64,000 bases of DNA from Escherichia coli (GTDB lineage Bacteria > Pseudomonadota > Gammaproteobacteria > Enterobacterales > Enterobacteriaceae). Where the stretch lies: NCBI RefSeq assembly GCF_965641715.1, contig NZ_OZ282453.1; one strand, 5' to 3'. Both the position numbers and the translations under genes were made by a program. The notes under the pieces are model-generated. The model was not told the DNA's origin. It made no database searches and saw only the letters and a program-made list of their open reading frames with translations. Of the stretch, positions 1,385-35,068 are shown in pieces. The first letter of the stretch is position 1; each line of letters starts with the position of its first letter.

Positions 1385-4300
1385 TTATTTCTCCTCCGCG
1401 TCTTCAGTCTCTGCAGCAACGGCGTTAATTGTCACCTTCACAGGCGTCATTTCGTACCCGCCATACGTCAGTGCGTTGAATGTGAACGTATAGACACCTG
1501 GCTTGCTGGTACTAAATGTACGCGTGATTTTCCCACCTGAGAAATGGTCAGCCTTCGACGGCAGGAATTGATAATCCTTCTCCGTCACTCCTTCCGGAGC
1601 CTCAATGTCGACCCACATACTTCCTCCTACGGGATTGACTCCCGCCATCAGGGTAACCGTCATTGTTGCAGTAGTCTTCCCGTCCGCCACCAGAGAATCT
1701 ACACGTTCTGGAGATGCGGCGAGCACCGCGTTTTTATCATCCGCGACGAATTTAGATTCAGCAGTTTTCGTCGATACCTGACCGTTGGCCTGTTCCACTT
1801 TCGCCGTGAGTGTATATGTCGCTGCGATAGTGGTAGAGCCGGTGAAAACAGCCTGTCCTTGCTCATTAGTTTTCGCCGTCCCTTTAGGATCCAGAACTAA
1901 ATTTTCCGAGCTGGCAGTCAGCGTCACGTCGCTATCCTTCAACAGGTTGTTATTGGCATCAGTCACCGTAACTTTATACGTTTGTTTGGTTTTGCCATCC
2001 GCCACTGCACGGTTGCCAATCACCTCAATACTGGAGATGGTCGCCGTAGTCTTATCGGCCACAAACGTTACAGACTGCGCATTTGAAGGCTGGTCATTTC
2101 CTGCCGACGCCGTGATCTCATACGTTCCGGCAGTCACGGAGACCACTTTCAGTTCCGCTTTACCCTCCTTGTCGGCGTTCACCATGATATTACCGTCTGC
2201 AAGCGGTTTGACGCCCCGAGGCAGATTAAAGACGACCACAGCGCCAGGCAGAAGGTTGCCGTATTGATCCTTAACCGTTGCCGTCAGCGTAAAGGCATCA
2301 TTGTCGTTTGCCACTTTTGGCGTGCTGCCATCAACCTCCAGGGTCGCCTGACCGGTACTGAAATCCGCCTTGAATTTCACCGTAACCGTCTTCTGAGCAT
2401 TATTCACTGAGGCCGTGATGCTGTGTTCCCCGGCAACCGTTGACATAAGCTCAATGTCCACTTTCCCTGCCGCATTGGTTGTTACTGTATTCCCCGTCTT
2501 GCTGGTCACACCCTGCGGTAAAGTCAGCGTAACTTCTTGCCCCTGCAACGGGTTACCATAGCTGTCCACGACGGTCAGGGTTATCTGGTTAGCAGACTGT
2601 CCATTAGCCAGTTGGTTATTAACCTTCACTGTCATATCACGAATCTCAGCCTTAGATGCGTCACCTGCAACGTTCAGCACCAGTGGCTGAGCAACGGCAT
2701 TTTGGCCGTTCACTCGCGGCATCACAGACAACTGACCCGCGGCAGATCCCAGCGTTAAGGTCGACACGTAGACCCCATTACCTTTCTCTGTCCAGTTTCC
2801 TGCTGAAGGACGCTCACTCCCCGTGCTGGCGGCACCGCTAAACACTGGTGCATCTGGCTTCAGCCCGGTGACCGGGTTCCCGTACGCATCCTTCACGGTG
2901 AAGGTGAGTTCCGTCGTCGTTTTGACGGTCGGAGCCTTATTGTCCGCAACAAGCGTAGAGTTCGCTGATGACATCTCTCCGGCGATGACCGTCAACTGCG
3001 CGGCTTCGGTGGCTGCTGGCTGGCCGTTGAAGAGAGGCATGACGCGAAGCTCGCCCGTCTTTCCACCTGTAGTCAACGTAGCAACATAGGAACCGTTACC
3101 TTTTTCGGTCCAACTGGAAACGGTCGCCCCTTCAGAGGCGGTCCCCGTCAAACTTGCCGACAACGCAAGACCACTGATAGCGTTGCCATGCGCATCTTTC
3201 GCCACCAGCGTCACGGTTGTGCTTTCGCCGGCTTTTACGTGATCTTCTGCGACAGAGACTTTCGACTGGTTTGAAGATAACGCATCAGCCACCACGGTTA
3301 CTTTTGCCGCATTTGCTGCCGCATTCTGTCCATTTAGCTTCGGCATAACTTCTAATTCACCCGCCGTAGAGCCGAGAGTAATCTGCGCAGTCCACGTCCC
3401 ATCACCATTATTTGTCCAGCCCGATGCCGTAGAACCTTCAGCAGCGGCACCCGCTAATGACGGCGCTTCCGGCGTGAGGCTGGTCACAGGGTTGTCATAG
3501 GCATCTTTTACCGTCCAGATTGCCGTAACTGTACCCCCAACCACCGGTTTATCAGGATTCAGGGTGATGGACGAATGTGCTGCATCAAGCGGCCCGGCAA
3601 CAAACTTCAGCGTTTGTTGTAATGTGCCCAGCTGATACTGCTCGCTGAAAGCACGCACAACAACGTTTCCGGCACGGGTCGAAGAAACCGTGGCGCTGTA
3701 AACGCCTGGTTTTATTTCCGAAATGGCACCAACGGTTACACCATTAGTGTCTTGCGGAACAAATCGCAAGCGGCTGGCTTCTCCCGTCACCGGATTACCC
3801 TCGGAGTCCACCGCAGTCAACGTCAACGTATAGGCTTGCTGACCATCAGCAACCACGTCACCTGACGGCTCGTTAGCGCTCAGGGTGGAGTTTGCCACAT
3901 CCATCATCGTGGCCCGCAGTTCTGCAGTGACGGTTTTGCTCATGCCATCAACGCTAACAGTAATCGTTGCCTCACCTGACTGCGTTCCGGTAGTAAAGAC
4001 AGACTGATACACCCCTGCTTCAGTTTCGGTGAACTCACCCAGTGTTGGCTTTGCCTGTGATTTAGTGGCCTTCAGGGAACGAGTCACAATATTTCCAGCC
4101 GGTTTGAAAGTTAGTTCAGTCTTGATCTGATCTTTCATGCCCGTGACTGGCTGGCCCTCGGCGTCGCGCAGAGACAGCACCAGCGGTTTTTGCTCATTAC
4201 CGTTAGCAAGCATTTGAATACGGCTCTGACCGTCAAGCGTTAACGCCGTGCGATCGGCGCTCATACCTGCTCCGGTAATGACCACCTCTGTCTGCACGCG

Positions 4301-5635
4301 TTTTGAGGCATTGTCTTTGTTATCGTAGGCAACCGCAGAAATCGCATAATAATTGTCTTTGCCTGGACGATAAGCCGGGAGCGTTACTTGCCACTGACTA
4401 CCCTGACCGGTAATTTTGCCACCTTCAGCCAGTAATGACGGCGCTTCCCACTGCACATTTTTCAGTCCGTGAGTTGCTTTGCTGACCACAAGCCCCAGGG
4501 AAAGTGTCTGACCGCCCTTGCCTTCAATACGTTCAGGCAGAGCAATACGGATCACTTCAGATTTGCGGTACTCAAGAACGATGTTGTTATTACGCTCAAC
4601 CAGGTCATAGCGGCTGCCTGCCAGCATTCGACGCTCGCGAATGCTGTCTGTATCGAGTTGTTTCTCCAGAGGTTCGCCAATCCGATAATTAACTTCCAGG
4701 CCAAAGCGAGTGTCATTCTCACCACTCTTGCCCTGCTTATGCCCGGCACTCAGGGTCAGAAGAGGTACTGGCGTGTAATTCACTTCAGCGGTAATCGCAT
4801 GTGGATCTTTCTGGCGTTTATCTTTGCCAAACAGCCCGACTTCATCGCCATAATACTGCTCATACATCAGGCTTGCGCCAAGCTGCGGCCAGGCGGGTAA
4901 ATAGCCCTCAGCACGAATATCCCAGCCATTCGCCGGGCGTTCCTGATAATCCTCAACATCCGGCGATTTTTTCCAGCCAGAAGCCCGAATATAACCATTG
5001 GCGCTCAGTTTCAGATAATCGCGCCAGTATTCCGCACCAACACCAATGCGGGTATGACTACGGGATAAATCATGGTCGATAAAGGTGTTCACCCCCGCCA
5101 TCCAGTCATTTCCTGAAAAATGACGCCAGCCAAAACCAATATTTGACTGAGTACGATCGTCTGTACGATGTATTGCTCCCTGAGTGAACAACATATTTGT
5201 TGGCGTATCATAAATCGGATAAAGCATTTCCAGCGAAGAATCCTTCAGCGAGAAATCTTTATCGACATTCAGTTTGACGCGCGCAGTACCGTATTTCCCG
5301 AGCCACTCCTGTATTTCCTGGTTAGCTTTAGCGGTGGCCATTCCGGTAATAAAATTACGTGTCGCATCGCTATCTGGCTGACTGCTTAAAAATGTCCCGG
5401 CATTTGCGGCAAACGACGCGACATTTTTCTCCACGTTATTATCAGCAGTTACCGTAGTATTTCCCATGCTCAACCGTGGCTGAACAGCATGCTGCGCACG
5501 TGCCGCCATTACTGGGGTAAAAGTGACTGCGAGTGGAAAAAGAACCTGAACAGAGATATTTGCCCACGCCACGCAGCGGGCCAGAACTGAATAACGAAAT
5601 CGTGGTTGTTTATGACCTGTTTTATAACGTGACAT
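1385..5635 (-). CDS. eaeH: Intimin/invasin-family inverse-autotransporter adhesin with tandem Ig-like (Big) repeats, FdeC/EaeH-like
   Basis: 1416-aa ORF; N-terminal signal-like region and beta-barrel segment; more than 8 repeated xT(L/V)TxxDxxGNPVTG motifs and repeated GEL(E/R)VMPxxNGQ motifs. Confidence 0.8.
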   Translation of the reverse strand: MSRYKTGHKQPRFRYSVLARCVAWANISVQVLFPLAVTFTPVMAARAQHAVQPRLSMGNTTVTADNNVEKNVASFAANAGTFLSSQPDSDATRNFITGMATAKANQEIQEWLGKYGTARVKLNVDKDFSLKDSSLEMLYPIYDTPTNMLFTQGAIHRTDDRTQSNIGFGWRHFSGNDWMAGVNTFIDHDLSRSHTRIGVGAEYWRDYLKLSANGYIRASGWKKSPDVEDYQERPANGWDIRAEGYLPAWPQLGASLMYEQYYGDEVGLFGKDKRQKDPHAITAEVNYTPVPLLTLSAGHKQGKSGENDTRFGLEVNYRIGEPLEKQLDTDSIRERRMLAGSRYDLVERNNNIVLEYRKSEVIRIALPERIEGKGGQTLSLGLVVSKATHGLKNVQWEAPSLLAEGGKITGQGSQWQVTLPAYRPGKDNYYAISAVAYDNKDNASKRVQTEVVITGAGMSADRTALTLDGQSRIQMLANGNEQKPLVLSLRDAEGQPVTGMKDQIKTELTFKPAGNIVTRSLKATKSQAKPTLGEFTETEAGVYQSVFTTGTQSGEATITVSVDGMSKTVTAELRATMMDVANSTLSANEPSGDVVADGQQAYTLTLTAVDSEGNPVTGEASRLRFVPQDTNGVTVGAISEIKPGVYSATVSSTRAGNVVVRAFSEQYQLGTLQQTLKFVAGPLDAAHSSITLNPDKPVVGGTVTAIWTVKDAYDNPVTSLTPEAPSLAGAAAEGSTASGWTNNGDGTWTAQITLGSTAGELEVMPKLNGQNAAANAAKVTVVADALSSNQSKVSVAEDHVKAGESTTVTLVAKDAHGNAISGLALSASLTGTASEGATVSSWTEKGNGSYVATLTTGGKTGELRVMPLFNGQPAATEAAQLTVIAGEMSSANSTLVADNKAPTVKTTTELTFTVKDAYGNPVTGLKPDAPVFSGAASTGSERPSAGNWTEKGNGVYVSTLTLGSAAGQLSVMPRVNGQNAVAQPLVLNVAGDASKAEIRDMTVKVNNQLANGQSANQITLTVVDSYGNPLQGQEVTLTLPQGVTSKTGNTVTTNAAGKVDIELMSTVAGEHSITASVNNAQKTVTVKFKADFSTGQATLEVDGSTPKVANDNDAFTLTATVKDQYGNLLPGAVVVFNLPRGVKPLADGNIMVNADKEGKAELKVVSVTAGTYEITASAGNDQPSNAQSVTFVADKTTATISSIEVIGNRAVADGKTKQTYKVTVTDANNNLLKDSDVTLTASSENLVLDPKGTAKTNEQGQAVFTGSTTIAATYTLTAKVEQANGQVSTKTAESKFVADDKNAVLAASPERVDSLVADGKTTATMTVTLMAGVNPVGGSMWVDIEAPEGVTEKDYQFLPSKADHFSGGKITRTFSTSKPGVYTFTFNALTYGGYEMTPVKVTINAVAAETEDAEEK

Positions 5636-31318: not shown

Positions 31319-32203
31319 ATGGCGAAAAGGGAGAACTACAACGAGCTGTACCTGTTTATGCAGGTGGTTCGAGAAGGCAGCTTTACCGCAGCGGCTCAGC
31401 GGCTGGGTCTTGCTCAGTCAGGAGTCAGCCGTTCTGTTCGCGAGCTTGAAGAAAGGCTGGGTGTCCAGCTGCTAGTGCGCACCACGCGTAAACTGTCGCT
31501 GACACAAGCAGGCGAGCAGCTCTACCAGAAGACGGCATCTGGATTTGAAATGTTAGATCTTGGGCTTGCCACACTGGCGCACTATCGAGAGACGCCCTCC
31601 GGCACGGTGCGTATCAATGCCAGCCAGCACGCGATTGATAAATGCCTGCTGCCAAAGCTGGCGGTATTTAAACAGCGATATCCTGATATCCGGCTTGAAC
31701 TGATAAATGAGAGCCGGTTCGTCGATATCATCGAGGAAAGATTCGATGCAGGTGTCCGCCTGGGGCCTGAAGTCGGCCAGGGTATGGTCGCGGTACGCAT
31801 CACGCCCGATATGGAGATGGCAATTGTGGGGACTCCGGAACATTTTCGTCGCTATGGTTTTCCGCAAACTCCGGCGGATTTAAAGGCGCATCCCTGTATC
31901 GCCTATCAGTTTGCCGACGGCAGCGTATACCAGTGGGAACTCAATCAGGATGATAAAAAAATCACTCATCGCCCTGAAGGGCAATGGGCCCTATCCGACA
32001 GCTATATGGAAGCAGAAGCCGCCCGGCTGGGCCTCGGATTGGCCTATGTTCCTGTTGAACTGGTCGCGGATGATTTAGAACACGGTAAGCTTATCAGGGT
32101 GTTGCAGCGTTACAGCCTGCGAATGGAGGGATTGTTTCTCTATTACCCTCATCGCAACGTCTCCCCCGCTCTGCGGATGGTCATTGATACATTGAAAATC
32201 TGA
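31319..32203 (+). CDS. LysR-family transcriptional regulator
   Basis: 294 aa; HTH FTAAAQRLGLAQSGVSRSVR; divergent from the hydrolase/MFS genes. Confidence 0.75.
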   Translation: MAKRENYNELYLFMQVVREGSFTAAAQRLGLAQSGVSRSVRELEERLGVQLLVRTTRKLSLTQAGEQLYQKTASGFEMLDLGLATLAHYRETPSGTVRINASQHAIDKCLLPKLAVFKQRYPDIRLELINESRFVDIIEERFDAGVRLGPEVGQGMVAVRITPDMEMAIVGTPEHFRRYGFPQTPADLKAHPCIAYQFADGSVYQWELNQDDKKITHRPEGQWALSDSYMEAEAARLGLGLAYVPVELVADDLEHGKLIRVLQRYSLRMEGLFLYYPHRNVSPALRMVIDTLKI

Positions 32204-32440
32204 ACGTTAACAACGACCGACTCTTCACTGTGCAATATTGTGTCAGGTAGTCACTCTGCGTTCAATTCCAGGGGCCGCTTTGAGCGAGAAAGAGCGGACT
32301 TATCTGTACAAGGGGACTATCCAGCAATGGAGATCACCCAAAAGAAAAAACTACCTGGCTCCCTCAACAACCTTCATCCGGGAATTTAGCCTCAATCAAC
32401 ATTTTTATATCTGTCAGGTTACTTCATTATGAAAACCGAT

Positions 32441-32705
32441 CAATATCGTTGTTTTTGTTGCAATAGTAGAATACGCGTATTTATTCCTCCATTTCTATTA
32501 ATAACGGCCATAAACTGTTCATTTCACTGATATTTAAAATATGCATCCTTTTCAAGCTGTTCAGCGGCGTAAGAAAACGTATTAAATATGAATTCGACGA
32601 TTTAACCATTTCTGTCTGATTGGTAATCATCTGTGATTAATGCTGGTCTATTGATTACGCCAGCATTAACCGCTTAGGGATGTATTCTTCCTGTTGATAT
32701 ACAGC
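32441..32705 (+). repeat. Degenerate second copy of the ykgR-rpmE2-rpmJ2 locus with the central ~680 bp missing
   Basis: 32441-32546 aligns to 13099-13215 (ykgR 3' end plus downstream); 32550-32705 aligns to 13896-14046 (rpmJ2 last codons plus downstream flank); about 80-85 percent identity by eye. Confidence 0.6.
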
Positions 32706-32903
32706 CTCGAAAAAGAGAGAAAATAAAACTGTGTCCAATATTACTTTACTACTCCAGACCGAAGCATCGGTAGAATTAGCAGAACGACTGGTACAGAAGG
32801 TGGGTATAGCGTCATTTGTCAGGTATTCCATTGCCTGACAAATGACAATTTTGAGTCAATAGACGTGCTTCTTGATCATGTCTTAAAAATTATACCATGA
32901 GCC

Positions 32904-33134
32904 TTATGAAGCATTATTTTTACTGACTGGTGTTAACTTTGCTATCATATAAACTCTGTTCTTAAAAAACGCGCCCAGAATTTTATATGATTTCCCTTGT
33001 TTTTCTGCCTGTAAAGAAATTTCTTTTTCAGTGCTGTTAATGGTTGAACCGACGGCAGTAATCGTTTTGGCGACGCTACTGAATGATAATAAAGACAGTG
33101 CAACCACAACAATTAAAGAACAGATAGTATTCAC
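32904..33134 (-). CDS. Small secreted protein, DUF1471 (BhsA/YdgH/McbA-like) family candidate
   Basis: GTG start 7 nt after an AGGAG Shine-Dalgarno; signal peptide; C-terminal AEKQGKSYKILG resembles the DUF1471 signature. Confidence 0.45.
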   Translation of the reverse strand: MNTICSLIVVVALSLLSFSSVAKTITAVGSTINSTEKEISLQAEKQGKSYKILGAFFKNRVYMIAKLTPVSKNNAS

Positions 33135-33347
33135 GCTAATTCTCCTGACAATTGAGAGGATGAGTTTTATATATAAAGGCATTAAACATGAGTCATGTTT
33201 ACTTCCTGTGAAAATAATCTTTCTGTAATTAAACCCTCATCTCCTTCGGGGTGAGCAATACATAATGCATCTTGCTATGAAAAACACAGGGATATATAAA
33301 TCTTCCTTCTGACCTATTTAATAAAACGTGAATGTAAAAATTATTCT

Positions 33348-34070
33348 TCAGTTTGCAGATGCAGTGGGTCTGATGGTAATTTCGGTTGTATCAACGCTTT
33401 CGGGAGATTCAATAATATGCCTTACCGCACGGGCAATATCCGCAGGTTGAAGTGCAACAGAACGGTAGGCGTCCATTGCCTTCATGGTTTCCACATGGGT
33501 AATGGTTGAAGCCAGTTCACTTTCGACAACGCCAGGATTTACGCAGGTCACACGGATTTTCGAGCTTTCCTGCCGTAAGCCATCAGAAATAGCCCGTACT
33601 GCAAATTTGGATGCACAATAGACTGCGCCTGTGGGCACAACAGAAAGGGCACCAATAGAACCAAGATTGATTATCTGACCGGAACCCTGTGCTTCCATCA
33701 CCGGAAGTACAGCGCCAATTCCCCACAGTACACCTTTGATATTCACGTCAATAGTGAGCTCCCATTCATCCTGTTTTCCTGCTGCAAGCGGTGAAAGCGG
33801 CATAACGCCCGCATTATTGATAAGAACATCAACTCGCCCCCAGCTATCCAGCGCTACTTGCACGAAATCTGCCATGGACTGTCGGTCTGTGACATCCAAC
33901 TCCCGAGCTTTAGCAATTCCTCCTGCGCGGCAAATTTCGGTTGCAATGGCTTCGATACGCTCAACTCTGCGTGCTCCCAGTAAAGTCTTTGCACCTGTCG
34001 TTCCCAGCTCTCTGGCAATACCTTCCCCAATACCACTTGATGCGCCGGTGATTAATATGACCTTATCCAT
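33348..34070 (-). CDS. Short-chain dehydrogenase/reductase (SDR)
   Basis: TGASSGIG Rossmann motif and catalytic YxxxK (YCASK). Confidence 0.75.
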   Translation of the reverse strand: MDKVILITGASSGIGEGIARELGTTGAKTLLGARRVERIEAIATEICRAGGIAKARELDVTDRQSMADFVQVALDSWGRVDVLINNAGVMPLSPLAAGKQDEWELTIDVNIKGVLWGIGAVLPVMEAQGSGQIINLGSIGALSVVPTGAVYCASKFAVRAISDGLRQESSKIRVTCVNPGVVESELASTITHVETMKAMDAYRSVALQPADIARAVRHIIESPESVDTTEITIRPTASAN

Positions 34071-34168: not shown

Positions 34169-35068
34169 ATGAAAATCGATCTTAATCTTTTACCCATTTT
34201 TATCGCGGTAGCAGAAGAAAGTAATTTTAGTAAAGCCGCCGCACGACTGGGCGTTACCCGTTCAGCGGTCAGTCAGGGAATAAGACGCCTTGAAGATGCA
34301 TTCGGGACAATGCTTGTAATGCGGACCACGCGCTCAGTTAATTTGACGGAAGCGGGAGAACGGCTGCATAAATCGTTGTCATTACCTTTATCCGGTATTG
34401 AGACAGCGTTCGAAGAGATGGTTTCTGATCATGTACCACGTGGACTTCTCAGAATCGCAGTGACGTCAATAGCTGAAGAATTTCTTTCAGGTCCGCTAAT
34501 CGCTTCGTTTGCAGCAGCCAATCCAGCCGTTACGCTTGATATTGTTGTCACGGATGAGGAATTCGATATCGTGGCCGCAGGTTACGATGCTGGCGTAAGG
34601 CTCGGAGAGGTCATTGAAAAAGACATGATTGCTGTGCCCCTTACCGGCAGTCAGCGTGAAATGGTCGTTGCCTCTCCCTCCTATCTCGCAGCCAACAGCA
34701 CACCTGTTCATCCGCGTGAACTTGTGAATCATAAGTGTATCGGCTGGCGTCAGTCCCCGGAGGTTGCGCCTTATCGCTGGCCATTTGAAGAAAACGGGAG
34801 AGCTTTCGACCTTGCGATTGAACCGCAGATTACGACTAATGATCTGCGTCTGATGTTGAGGCTGGCTCTTGCCGGCGGAGGAATAACAATTGCCACTCAG
34901 GAAACTTTCAGGCCGTATATTGAAAGCGGTAAGCTTGTATCTCTGCTTGATGACTTTCTTCCACAATTTCCGGGCTTCTATCTGTATTTCCCACAGCGTC
35001 GCAATATTGCACCAAAGCTCCGCGCCCTGATTGACCACGTCAAGGAATGGCGGCAGCAATTGGCTTAA
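34169..35068 (+). CDS. LysR-family transcriptional regulator
   Basis: 299 aa; HTH FSKAAARLGVTRSAVSQGIR; divergent from the SDR gene. Confidence 0.75.
   Translation: MKIDLNLLPIFIAVAEESNFSKAAARLGVTRSAVSQGIRRLEDAFGTMLVMRTTRSVNLTEAGERLHKSLSLPLSGIETAFEEMVSDHVPRGLLRIAVTSIAEEFLSGPLIASFAAANPAVTLDIVVTDEEFDIVAAGYDAGVRLGEVIEKDMIAVPLTGSQREMVVASPSYLAANSTPVHPRELVNHKCIGWRQSPEVAPYRWPFEENGRAFDLAIEPQITTNDLRLMLRLALAGGGITIATQETFRPYIESGKLVSLLDDFLPQFPGFYLYFPQRRNIAPKLRALIDHVKEWRQQLA

Follow-up and report, generated by a model that had tools for sequence, protein, structure and literature searches.

A short-form DUF1471 protein with a probable GTG start, encoded beside a LysR-type regulator and an SDR-family oxidoreductase in Escherichia coli

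Results

Organization of the locus

The window, the whole 64,000-nucleotide stretch of E. coli DNA analyzed here, carries a small gene on its minus strand at 32904–33134, and direct reading of the sequence gave 76 codons followed by TAA at 32906–32904. The first codon of this frame is a GTG at 33134–33132, preceded by the Shine–Dalgarno (SD) sequence AGGAG at 33146–33142 and the 7-nt spacer AATTAGC at 33141–33135. The minus strand around these elements reads GTCAGGAGAATTAGCGTGAAT..., and the product of the 76-codon open reading frame (ORF) is VNTICSLIVVVALSLLSFSSVAKTITAVGSTINSTEKEISLQAEKQGKSYKILGAFFKNRVYMIAKLTPVSKNNAS. An AGGAG 7 nt before a GTG, as claimed in an earlier sequence-only reading of this DNA, was thereby borne out to the base. 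Within the product, residues 1–22 (MNTICSLIVVVALSLLSFSSVA; encoded at 33069–33134) form a predicted Sec signal peptide, and the mature 54-residue domain, which begins with KTITAVG, is encoded at 32907–33068.

Upstream of the GTG, the frame remains open for 34 more codons, with a single ATG among them at 33182. The mechanical ORF list contained solely the 92-amino-acid form that starts at this ATG (32904–33182, minus strand), just as the sequence-only reading had stated. In all E. coli records inspected, the RefSeq/PGAP model was likewise a 92-amino-acid, 279-nt "hypothetical protein" whose ATG lies 16 codons upstream of the GTG. Gene callers other than PGAP often gave the 76-amino-acid form, as did IMG, where one such product is named "multiple stress resistance protein BhsA"; two GenBank depositors named the protein "putative membrane protein". 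The gene corresponds to ECs_0307 of O157:H7 Sakai, and the sole match in a literature search for ECs0307 was false (KEGG map ecs03070).

The local gene order comprises a LysR-family gene (31319–32203, plus strand), a 3' fragment of ykgR, the small gene, a gene for a short-chain dehydrogenase/reductase (SDR)-family oxidoreductase (33348–34070, minus strand; PF00106, 181 bits) located upstream of the small gene across a 213-nt gap, and a LysR-family regulator gene divergent from the SDR gene (34169–35068, plus strand), identified from its ORF and annotation as the yagP orthologue. The block is adjoined by paoABCD. In Sakai, ECs_0307 is found beside ECs_0306 (oxidoreductase) and ECs_0305 (yagP, LysR). 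The K-12 genome has a deletion at this locus that left only a yagP fragment abutting paoD, and the K-12 region between ykgR and ykgP contained nothing resembling the small gene. The GC content of the gene and its flanks is approximately 35%, compared with approximately 50% for the neighbors.

The ykgR fragment (32430–32530, plus strand) lacks the first ~9 codons, and the homology that it shares with the full-length ykgR genes of K-12 and the cryptic Escherichia clades breaks off at ~32432. Since ykgR is complete in the cryptic clades, where it is convergent to the small gene, a rearrangement appears to have its breakpoint here, ~370 nt downstream of the small gene. PapM-32-1, the strain nearest to the window here, carries a second, complete ykgR ~19 kb away, beside ykgM.

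The terminator scan revealed a perfect 15-bp hairpin with a 6-nt loop at 32811–32846, located 58 nt past the stop codon of the small gene. A T-run accompanies this hairpin on the plus strand only, and the hairpin may end the convergent plus-strand transcript from the ykgR side rather than that of the small gene. The same scan yielded no minus-strand terminator for the small gene and no terminator-like site between the SDR gene and the small gene. In the promoter scan, minus-strand promoter-like sites were located only inside or overlapping the coding sequence, with none convincing in the gap between the SDR gene and the small gene. No known RNA family matched positions 32200–33500 at E ≤ 1, and searches with PHROGs phage profiles and PADLOC defence profiles gave nothing meaningful.

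Distribution among E. coli genomes

A 701-bp stretch around the ORF had at least a partial match in 615 of 5426 complete genomes. With a tighter 421-bp query, 436 of the 5426 matched and 426 carried nearly all of it, so that the gene is present in approximately 8% of complete E. coli genomes, mostly O157:H7 and its relatives, and absent from approximately 92%, including K-12. The label "accessory block" that the locus had been given is fair in view of this distribution, the deletion in K-12, and the low GC content.

Coding status and allelic variation

We aligned 15 copies of the locus: that of the window, those of eight other E. coli records, and six from two lineages of cryptic Escherichia obtained via protein look-ups. 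The 76-codon frame was open in all 15, being unbroken in 14 and restored by two compensating deletions in the remaining one (L012; NZ_CP021844.1). In this allele, deletions of 2 and 1 nt in A-runs at the equivalent of ~33010–33035 scramble seven residues and keep the frame, converting EKEISLQAEKQ to EKNFFTGRKQ inside the predicted helix (P0019; a 90%-identity cluster with 30 member sequences). In one lineage, the C-terminal tail is frameshifted. Frameshifted or scrambled products are also found in the databases (P0019 and P0078–P0084), several of them broken at the same A/T runs; P0078–P0084 occur on few contigs, whereas the intact forms reach contig counts of at least 1000 and of 809.

Comparison of E. 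coli with the cryptic lineages gave pS values of 0.25–0.33 and dN/dS values of 0.13–0.24 for the whole coding sequence, and pS values of 0.21–0.31 and dN/dS values of 0.09–0.18 for the mature part. The frame also stays open in a 56–58% identical paralogue, for which dS was ~0.9 and dN/dS 0.33. Between the window and this paralogue, identity in the adjacent upstream intergenic DNA is only 52%, which indicates that the flank has been effectively randomized. These substitution patterns indicate that the ORF at 32904–33134 is a real gene under purifying selection.

Position of the start codon

Of the 15 aligned alleles, six have GTG and nine have ATG at 33134. Exact 30-mer counts in complete genomes gave 345 with GTG and 28 with ATG at this position, distributed as AGGAG with GTG in 37, AGGAG with ATG in 28, AGGGA with GTG (the O157 type) in 308, and AGGGA with ATG in none. 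Switching between GTG and ATG is a change that a genuine start codon tolerates. The SD sequence itself varies among alleles, being AGGAG in most E. coli, AGGGA in the O157 type, and AGGAT in L006–L008, and it is lost (ATGAT) in L003–L005; the corresponding region of the closest paralogue is purine-rich (AAGGGG / ACAGGAAAA). In this paralogue, the frame ahead of the homologous ATG is open for 19 codons, none of which is ATG, GTG, or TTG, so that translation can start only at the homologous ATG. Moreover, Met1 of distant relatives of 68–73 amino acids aligns with the codon at 33134. In a single Logan contig, ATA occupies the position of the proposed start.

Eight of the 15 aligned alleles either lack the upstream ATG or have a stop codon that blocks it. 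Two of these, L009 and L012, have ATA at codon −16, on which their RefSeq coding sequences nevertheless open (positions 418–420 of L009, NZ_AP022540.1, and 405–407 of L012, NZ_CP021844.1). Because neither ATG, GTG, nor TTG is present there, the 92-amino-acid model has apparently been propagated by protein homology. The six cryptic-lineage loci (L003–L008) lack the extension owing to an indel of 1 nt and an in-frame TAA (−12), and their remaining upstream in-frame ATGs lie at differing sites (−9 or −4). Within E. coli, seven of the eight variable sites in the 48-nt extension (33135–33182) are non-synonymous, and pN/pS is 1.66 in the extension versus 0.30 in codons 2–76, a pattern indicating that the extension evolves neutrally. 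No SD or purine-rich element was found ahead of the ATG at 33182. The 16 extra codons of the RefSeq model most likely represent an untranslated 5' leader harboring the SD sequence, and the model itself was most likely extended too far and then copied between genomes by homology.

A four-codon mini-ORF (ATG ACT CAT GTT TAA; 33196–33182, minus strand) with AGGAAG ahead of it overlaps the RefSeq ATG as TAATG. Translational coupling of the upstream ATG through this mini-ORF was considered and rejected, as the mini-ORF ATG is deleted in L003–L008, and the mini-ORF is probably fortuitous. A Tat signal in the 92-amino-acid form (V-R-R-I-S-V) was also rejected; in O157, RR is replaced by RE, the extension is absent in the cryptic clades, and the hydrophobicity of the h-region is Sec-like.

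The GTG had been proposed as the true start from the sequence, and its conservation, together with the ATG of the paralogue and the lack of conservation of the upstream ATG, upheld that proposal. Translation very probably starts at the GTG at 33134 and yields a 76-residue pre-protein.

Signal peptide

The N-terminus of the pre-protein contains a hydrophobic core, LIVVVALSL, with a Kyte–Doolittle 9-mer mean of 3.3, followed by polar SFSS and the predicted cleavage site S-V-A|K, which places Ser at −3 and Ala (Ala22) at −1. Ala at −1 was present in at least 90% of 40 aligned family members, and the hydrophobic core and S-V-A|K line up with the cleavage position of the family. No lipobox cysteine follows the predicted cleavage site. 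The n-region of the short form, MNTICS, contains neither Lys nor Arg, an unusual feature in a Sec signal. The signal peptide noted in the sequence-only reading is thus visible in its core and cleavage site and atypical in its uncharged n-region, and the word "secreted" used there would be better replaced by "putatively exported to the periplasm". From these features, the protein is likely exported and cleaved after Ala22.

Relationship to the DUF1471 family

Direct profile matches of the single sequence were weak. PF07338 (DUF1471) matched the 76-amino-acid form at 13.6 bits (E = 0.07) and the 92-amino-acid form at 13.1 bits, below the gathering threshold of 27 bits. The BhsA equivalog NCBIfam NF047859 matched at 22.5 bits (E = 1.3e-4), below its cut-off of 90, with only the C-terminal 44 positions aligned, and the YhcN profile matched at 11.5 bits. 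All of these sub-threshold matches cover the same C-terminal two-thirds. A word-indexed protein search retrieved Escherichia/Shigella orthologues only.

We then built a profile from 13 orthologues and searched it exhaustively against 1.84 billion representatives. This search retrieved 62 proteins at E ≤ 1e-3, 17 of them at E ≤ 1e-10, nearly all of 68–73 amino acids. In a 40-protein alignment comprising the window protein, three orthologues, and 36 relatives, PF07338 matched 35 proteins, and its gathering score was exceeded by at least 12 relatives tested individually (28.6–45.2 bits). Alignment of the orthologue profile with these 12 relatives by hhalign gave a probability of 99.6% (E = 1.4e-24; 48% identity), with columns 1–69 aligned on 1–69. 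In Enterobacter and Pantoea, the relatives bear the source name "YdgH/BhsA/McbA-like domain containing protein". The named sources of all inspected orthologues and relatives were Enterobacterales (Escherichia, Shigella, Enterobacter, Pantoea, Atlantibacter, and Klebsiella), with the sole exception of a metagenome bin labelled Bacteroides, which is probably mis-binned. A sequence search of the PDB with the Escherichia-only profile gave no match, and the 40-sequence profile retrieved only SrfN and YahO (E = 0.035–0.3), which is too weak alone.

These profile comparisons establish the homology of the small protein to DUF1471, even though it falls below the curated single-sequence thresholds, and identify it as a member of a short-form branch (68–76-amino-acid precursors) of this Enterobacterales-specific family. 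The BhsA/YdgH-like C-terminal motif reported from the sequence is accordingly real, albeit weak when judged on the single sequence; the proposed HMM search against PF07338 fell short directly and succeeded through the orthologue profile and the relatives above the gathering score. The RefSeq name "hypothetical protein" reflects a divergence too great for the Pfam and NCBIfam cut-offs. Contrary to the IMG name, the score of 22.5 bits against the 90-bit equivalog cut-off indicates that the protein is not BhsA.

The short-form proteins of Enterobacter (WP_248243945.1; P0091) and Pantoea (P0096 cluster) resemble the small protein in their length class, in a predicted signal peptide ending in Ala, and in the strand-helix-strand-strand core, with 41–48% identity. 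They differ in passing the PF07338 cut-off, in carrying Lys rather than Asn in the n-region, and in lacking its 8-residue C-terminal tail; the genomic context of P0091, between lpxH and purE, is also different. By profile and fold, BhsA (YcfR), YhcN, McbA, YahO, and SrfN belong to the same superfamily as the small protein, and they are likewise small and restricted to Enterobacterales; they are exported, as is predicted for the small protein. The classical single-domain members have 85–91 amino acids and carry one more strand and a short helix at the N-terminus (PMC4092069).

Predicted fold

AlphaFold prediction of the whole pre-protein with the 40-sequence alignment gave a pLDDT of 84.6 and a separate N-terminal helix at residues 3–19, which corresponds to the predicted signal peptide. 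The model of the mature 54 residues reached a pLDDT of 93 and consisted of a strand (2–7), a helix (10–23), two further strands (27–35 and 39–46; E-H-E-E), and a disordered tail of eight residues. Structural comparison of the mature model retrieved the YdgH N-domain (PDB ID: 2m2j; score 5.9, 1.5 Å over 48 residues), the YdgH C-domain (4evu; 5.7, 1.6 Å over 47 residues), YahO (2ma4; 5.0), SrfN (2jna; 4.9), and a putative periplasmic protein, the NESG target StR106 (2noc; 4.5). RcsF, UPF0145, and an archaeal Se-binding protein were also among the matches, and all three were listed by Eletsky et al. as sharing the DUF1471 fold (PMC4092069). A Foldseek search with the full-length model was not significant.

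The core of the DUF1471 fold, a three-stranded antiparallel sheet with a packed long helix, is present in the mature model. Solved DUF1471 domains have four strands in the order 2-4-3-1 and an extra short helix (PMC4092069). The first strand and the short helix are absent from the model, in which the mature part opens with the equivalent of strand 2, and they are absent throughout the 68–76-amino-acid branch. The predicted fold of the small protein thus matches solved DUF1471 domains in a minimal form.

A conserved LysR/SDR/small-gene module

The LysR, SDR, and small genes occur together in E. coli and in the cryptic Escherichia clades, and mobile islands carry a second copy of the trio that has diverged from the first. 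In this second copy (L020–L023, positions 3035–5582, from public contigs), the SDR is 90%, the LysR 86%, and the small protein 56–58% identical to those of the window. The LysR gene is again divergent from the SDR gene, and the small gene follows ~240 nt downstream, and then a gene for an Atu4866-domain protein. The mobile contexts differ case by case and include prophage tail genes and islands of the CbtA/CbeA-YfjT type. Between the two copies, dS was 0.76 for SDR, 1.0 for LysR, and 0.9 for the small gene, and these similar values indicate that the three genes have travelled together since the two versions split. The corresponding dN/dS values were 0.08, 0.08, and 0.33, so that the small, putatively exported protein evolves approximately four times faster at the protein level than SDR and LysR.

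The small protein of the second copy is the closest paralogue of the window protein, an unnamed 73-amino-acid "hypothetical protein [Enterobacterales]" (P0087/P0148 cluster) found in E. coli, Atlantibacter, and Klebsiella. It shares with the small gene the same module and an ATG at the homologous start, and it is also below the Pfam cut-off. It differs in its location on prophage-like or integrative islands, in the Atu4866-domain gene that follows, and in an n-region with His/Arg.

Co-transcription of the SDR gene with the small gene is plausible, and the LysR protein encoded at 34169–35068 is presumed to be the regulator of the module; no LysR-box-like inverted repeat was found in the SDR–LysR intergenic region. 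In an allele group of 92–96% identity (L009–L011, positions 1–253; E. coli THO-010, CFIAFB20140388, and TUM14759), the SDR gene is annotated as a pseudogene lacking its N-terminus, and the small ORF is intact.

Discussion

Alternative explanations

The RefSeq model could itself be correct, with translation from the ATG at 33182 and a 92-residue pre-protein whose charged n-region (K6, R13, and R14) drives export, or both starts could be used. The upstream ATG is present in eight of the 15 aligned alleles, including those of the window and O157, and is consistently chosen by PGAP; it would supply the basic residues that the short form lacks, and even the cryptic-clade alleles retain some upstream in-frame ATG. 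The short form has weak points of its own in the degraded SD of O157, its loss in L003–L005, and the ATA of the Logan contig. Against this stand the missing SD ahead of 33182, the ATA codons of L009 and L012, the loss of the extension in L003–L008, its predominantly non-synonymous polymorphism, the change from RR to RE in O157, and the lack of any such extension in the paralogue and the 68–73-amino-acid relatives, which together make the longer product quite unlikely. The uncharged n-region of the GTG-initiated form, with its strongly hydrophobic helix, also raises the question of whether the N-terminus is an uncleaved signal anchor, in which case the product would be a small single-pass membrane protein, as the name used by the two GenBank depositors implies, and not a soluble DUF1471 protein of the periplasm. 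We consider this very unlikely, given the small residues at −3 and −1, the Ala at −1 in at least 90% of 40 relatives, a hydrophobic stretch of only ~12–16 residues before SFSS, which is short for a membrane span, and the experimentally demonstrated signal-peptide cleavage of the family members SrfN and YahO (PMC4092069).

Alternatively, the low-GC accessory patch could contain no more than a gene remnant in decay or an orphan ORF without function, whose conservation would simply reflect the youth of the locus. Its restriction to ~436 of 5426 complete genomes, the loss from K-12, the frameshifted and scrambled alleles, the drop in GC content, the adjoining truncated ykgR and rearrangement breakpoint, and the SDR pseudogene of some strains would all fit such a history. 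Nevertheless, dN/dS is well below 1 despite substantial synonymous divergence, and the frame has been kept across the Escherichia clades and in a paralogue so distant that its intergenic flank is randomized. Also retained are the start codon and an SD-like element; the structural model is confident and typical of the family, and intact alleles far outnumber broken ones by contig count; decay is accordingly a highly improbable explanation. The reading that we favor is that of a genuine gene with a GTG start, encoding an exported short-form DUF1471 protein as the last gene of a three-gene module, to which we assign a probability of approximately 85%.

Putative function

For this gene, AGGAG would position the ribosome at the GTG at 33134 for synthesis of the 76-residue pre-protein, whose first 22 residues would serve as a Sec-type signal peptide and be cut after S-V-A. 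Cleavage would free the mature part, 54 residues in length, into the periplasm; its fold would be a three-stranded antiparallel sheet on one long helix, the core of DUF1471 (PF07338). By analogy with BhsA, YhcN, and RclB, whose stress roles are summarized in PMC12096828, the product may be a small protein of the envelope stress response, with LysR controlling its synthesis jointly with that of the SDR.

The closest analogy in gene layout is with RclB (YkgI), encoded at rclR/rclABC, where a divergent regulator and an oxidoreductase are likewise followed by a gene for a small periplasmic DUF1471 protein. RclB contributes to resistance to the oxidant hypothiocyanite (HOSCN) by a mechanism that is not known (PMC12096828). 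Here, in contrast, the regulator is of the LysR type, the oxidoreductase is an SDR rather than the rcl flavoprotein, and an RclC-like membrane partner is absent. The rcl locus of K-12 lies ~20 kb from the deletion site, and this neighborhood had suggested orthology with RclB; we rejected orthology, as BLASTP gave no alignment at E ≤ 100. We tentatively suggest that the LysR regulator induces the small protein along with the SDR and that the protein acts in the periplasm in response to envelope stress, with the balance of probability somewhat against this function.

A broader and more doubtful proposal is that LysR, SDR, and the mini-DUF1471 protein constitute a self-contained, horizontally mobile stress cassette working like rclR-rclAB. 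It would exist in two versions (dS ~0.8–1.0), one chromosomal beside paoABCD and the other on prophage-like islands. LysR would sense an electrophile or oxidant, the cytoplasmic oxidoreductase would detoxify it, and the fast-evolving minimal DUF1471 protein would protect or remodel the envelope. If true, this cassette would represent a new functional pairing together with a minimal three-strand form of DUF1471.

Significance

The result is an annotation correction and the addition of one more divergent short-form member to a well-known, functionally obscure family. Its main value lies in annotation hygiene, as a gene of O157:H7 is listed as "hypothetical" in RefSeq with an N-terminus that is probably 16 residues too long, and the corrected start alters both the predicted signal peptide and the mature product. 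It also reveals that one branch of DUF1471 falls beneath the Pfam and NCBIfam thresholds. Mild novelty is confined to the conserved, mobile LysR/SDR/mini-DUF1471 module, which leaves the current understanding of the family unchanged and provides a concrete, testable context for a family of obscure molecular function.
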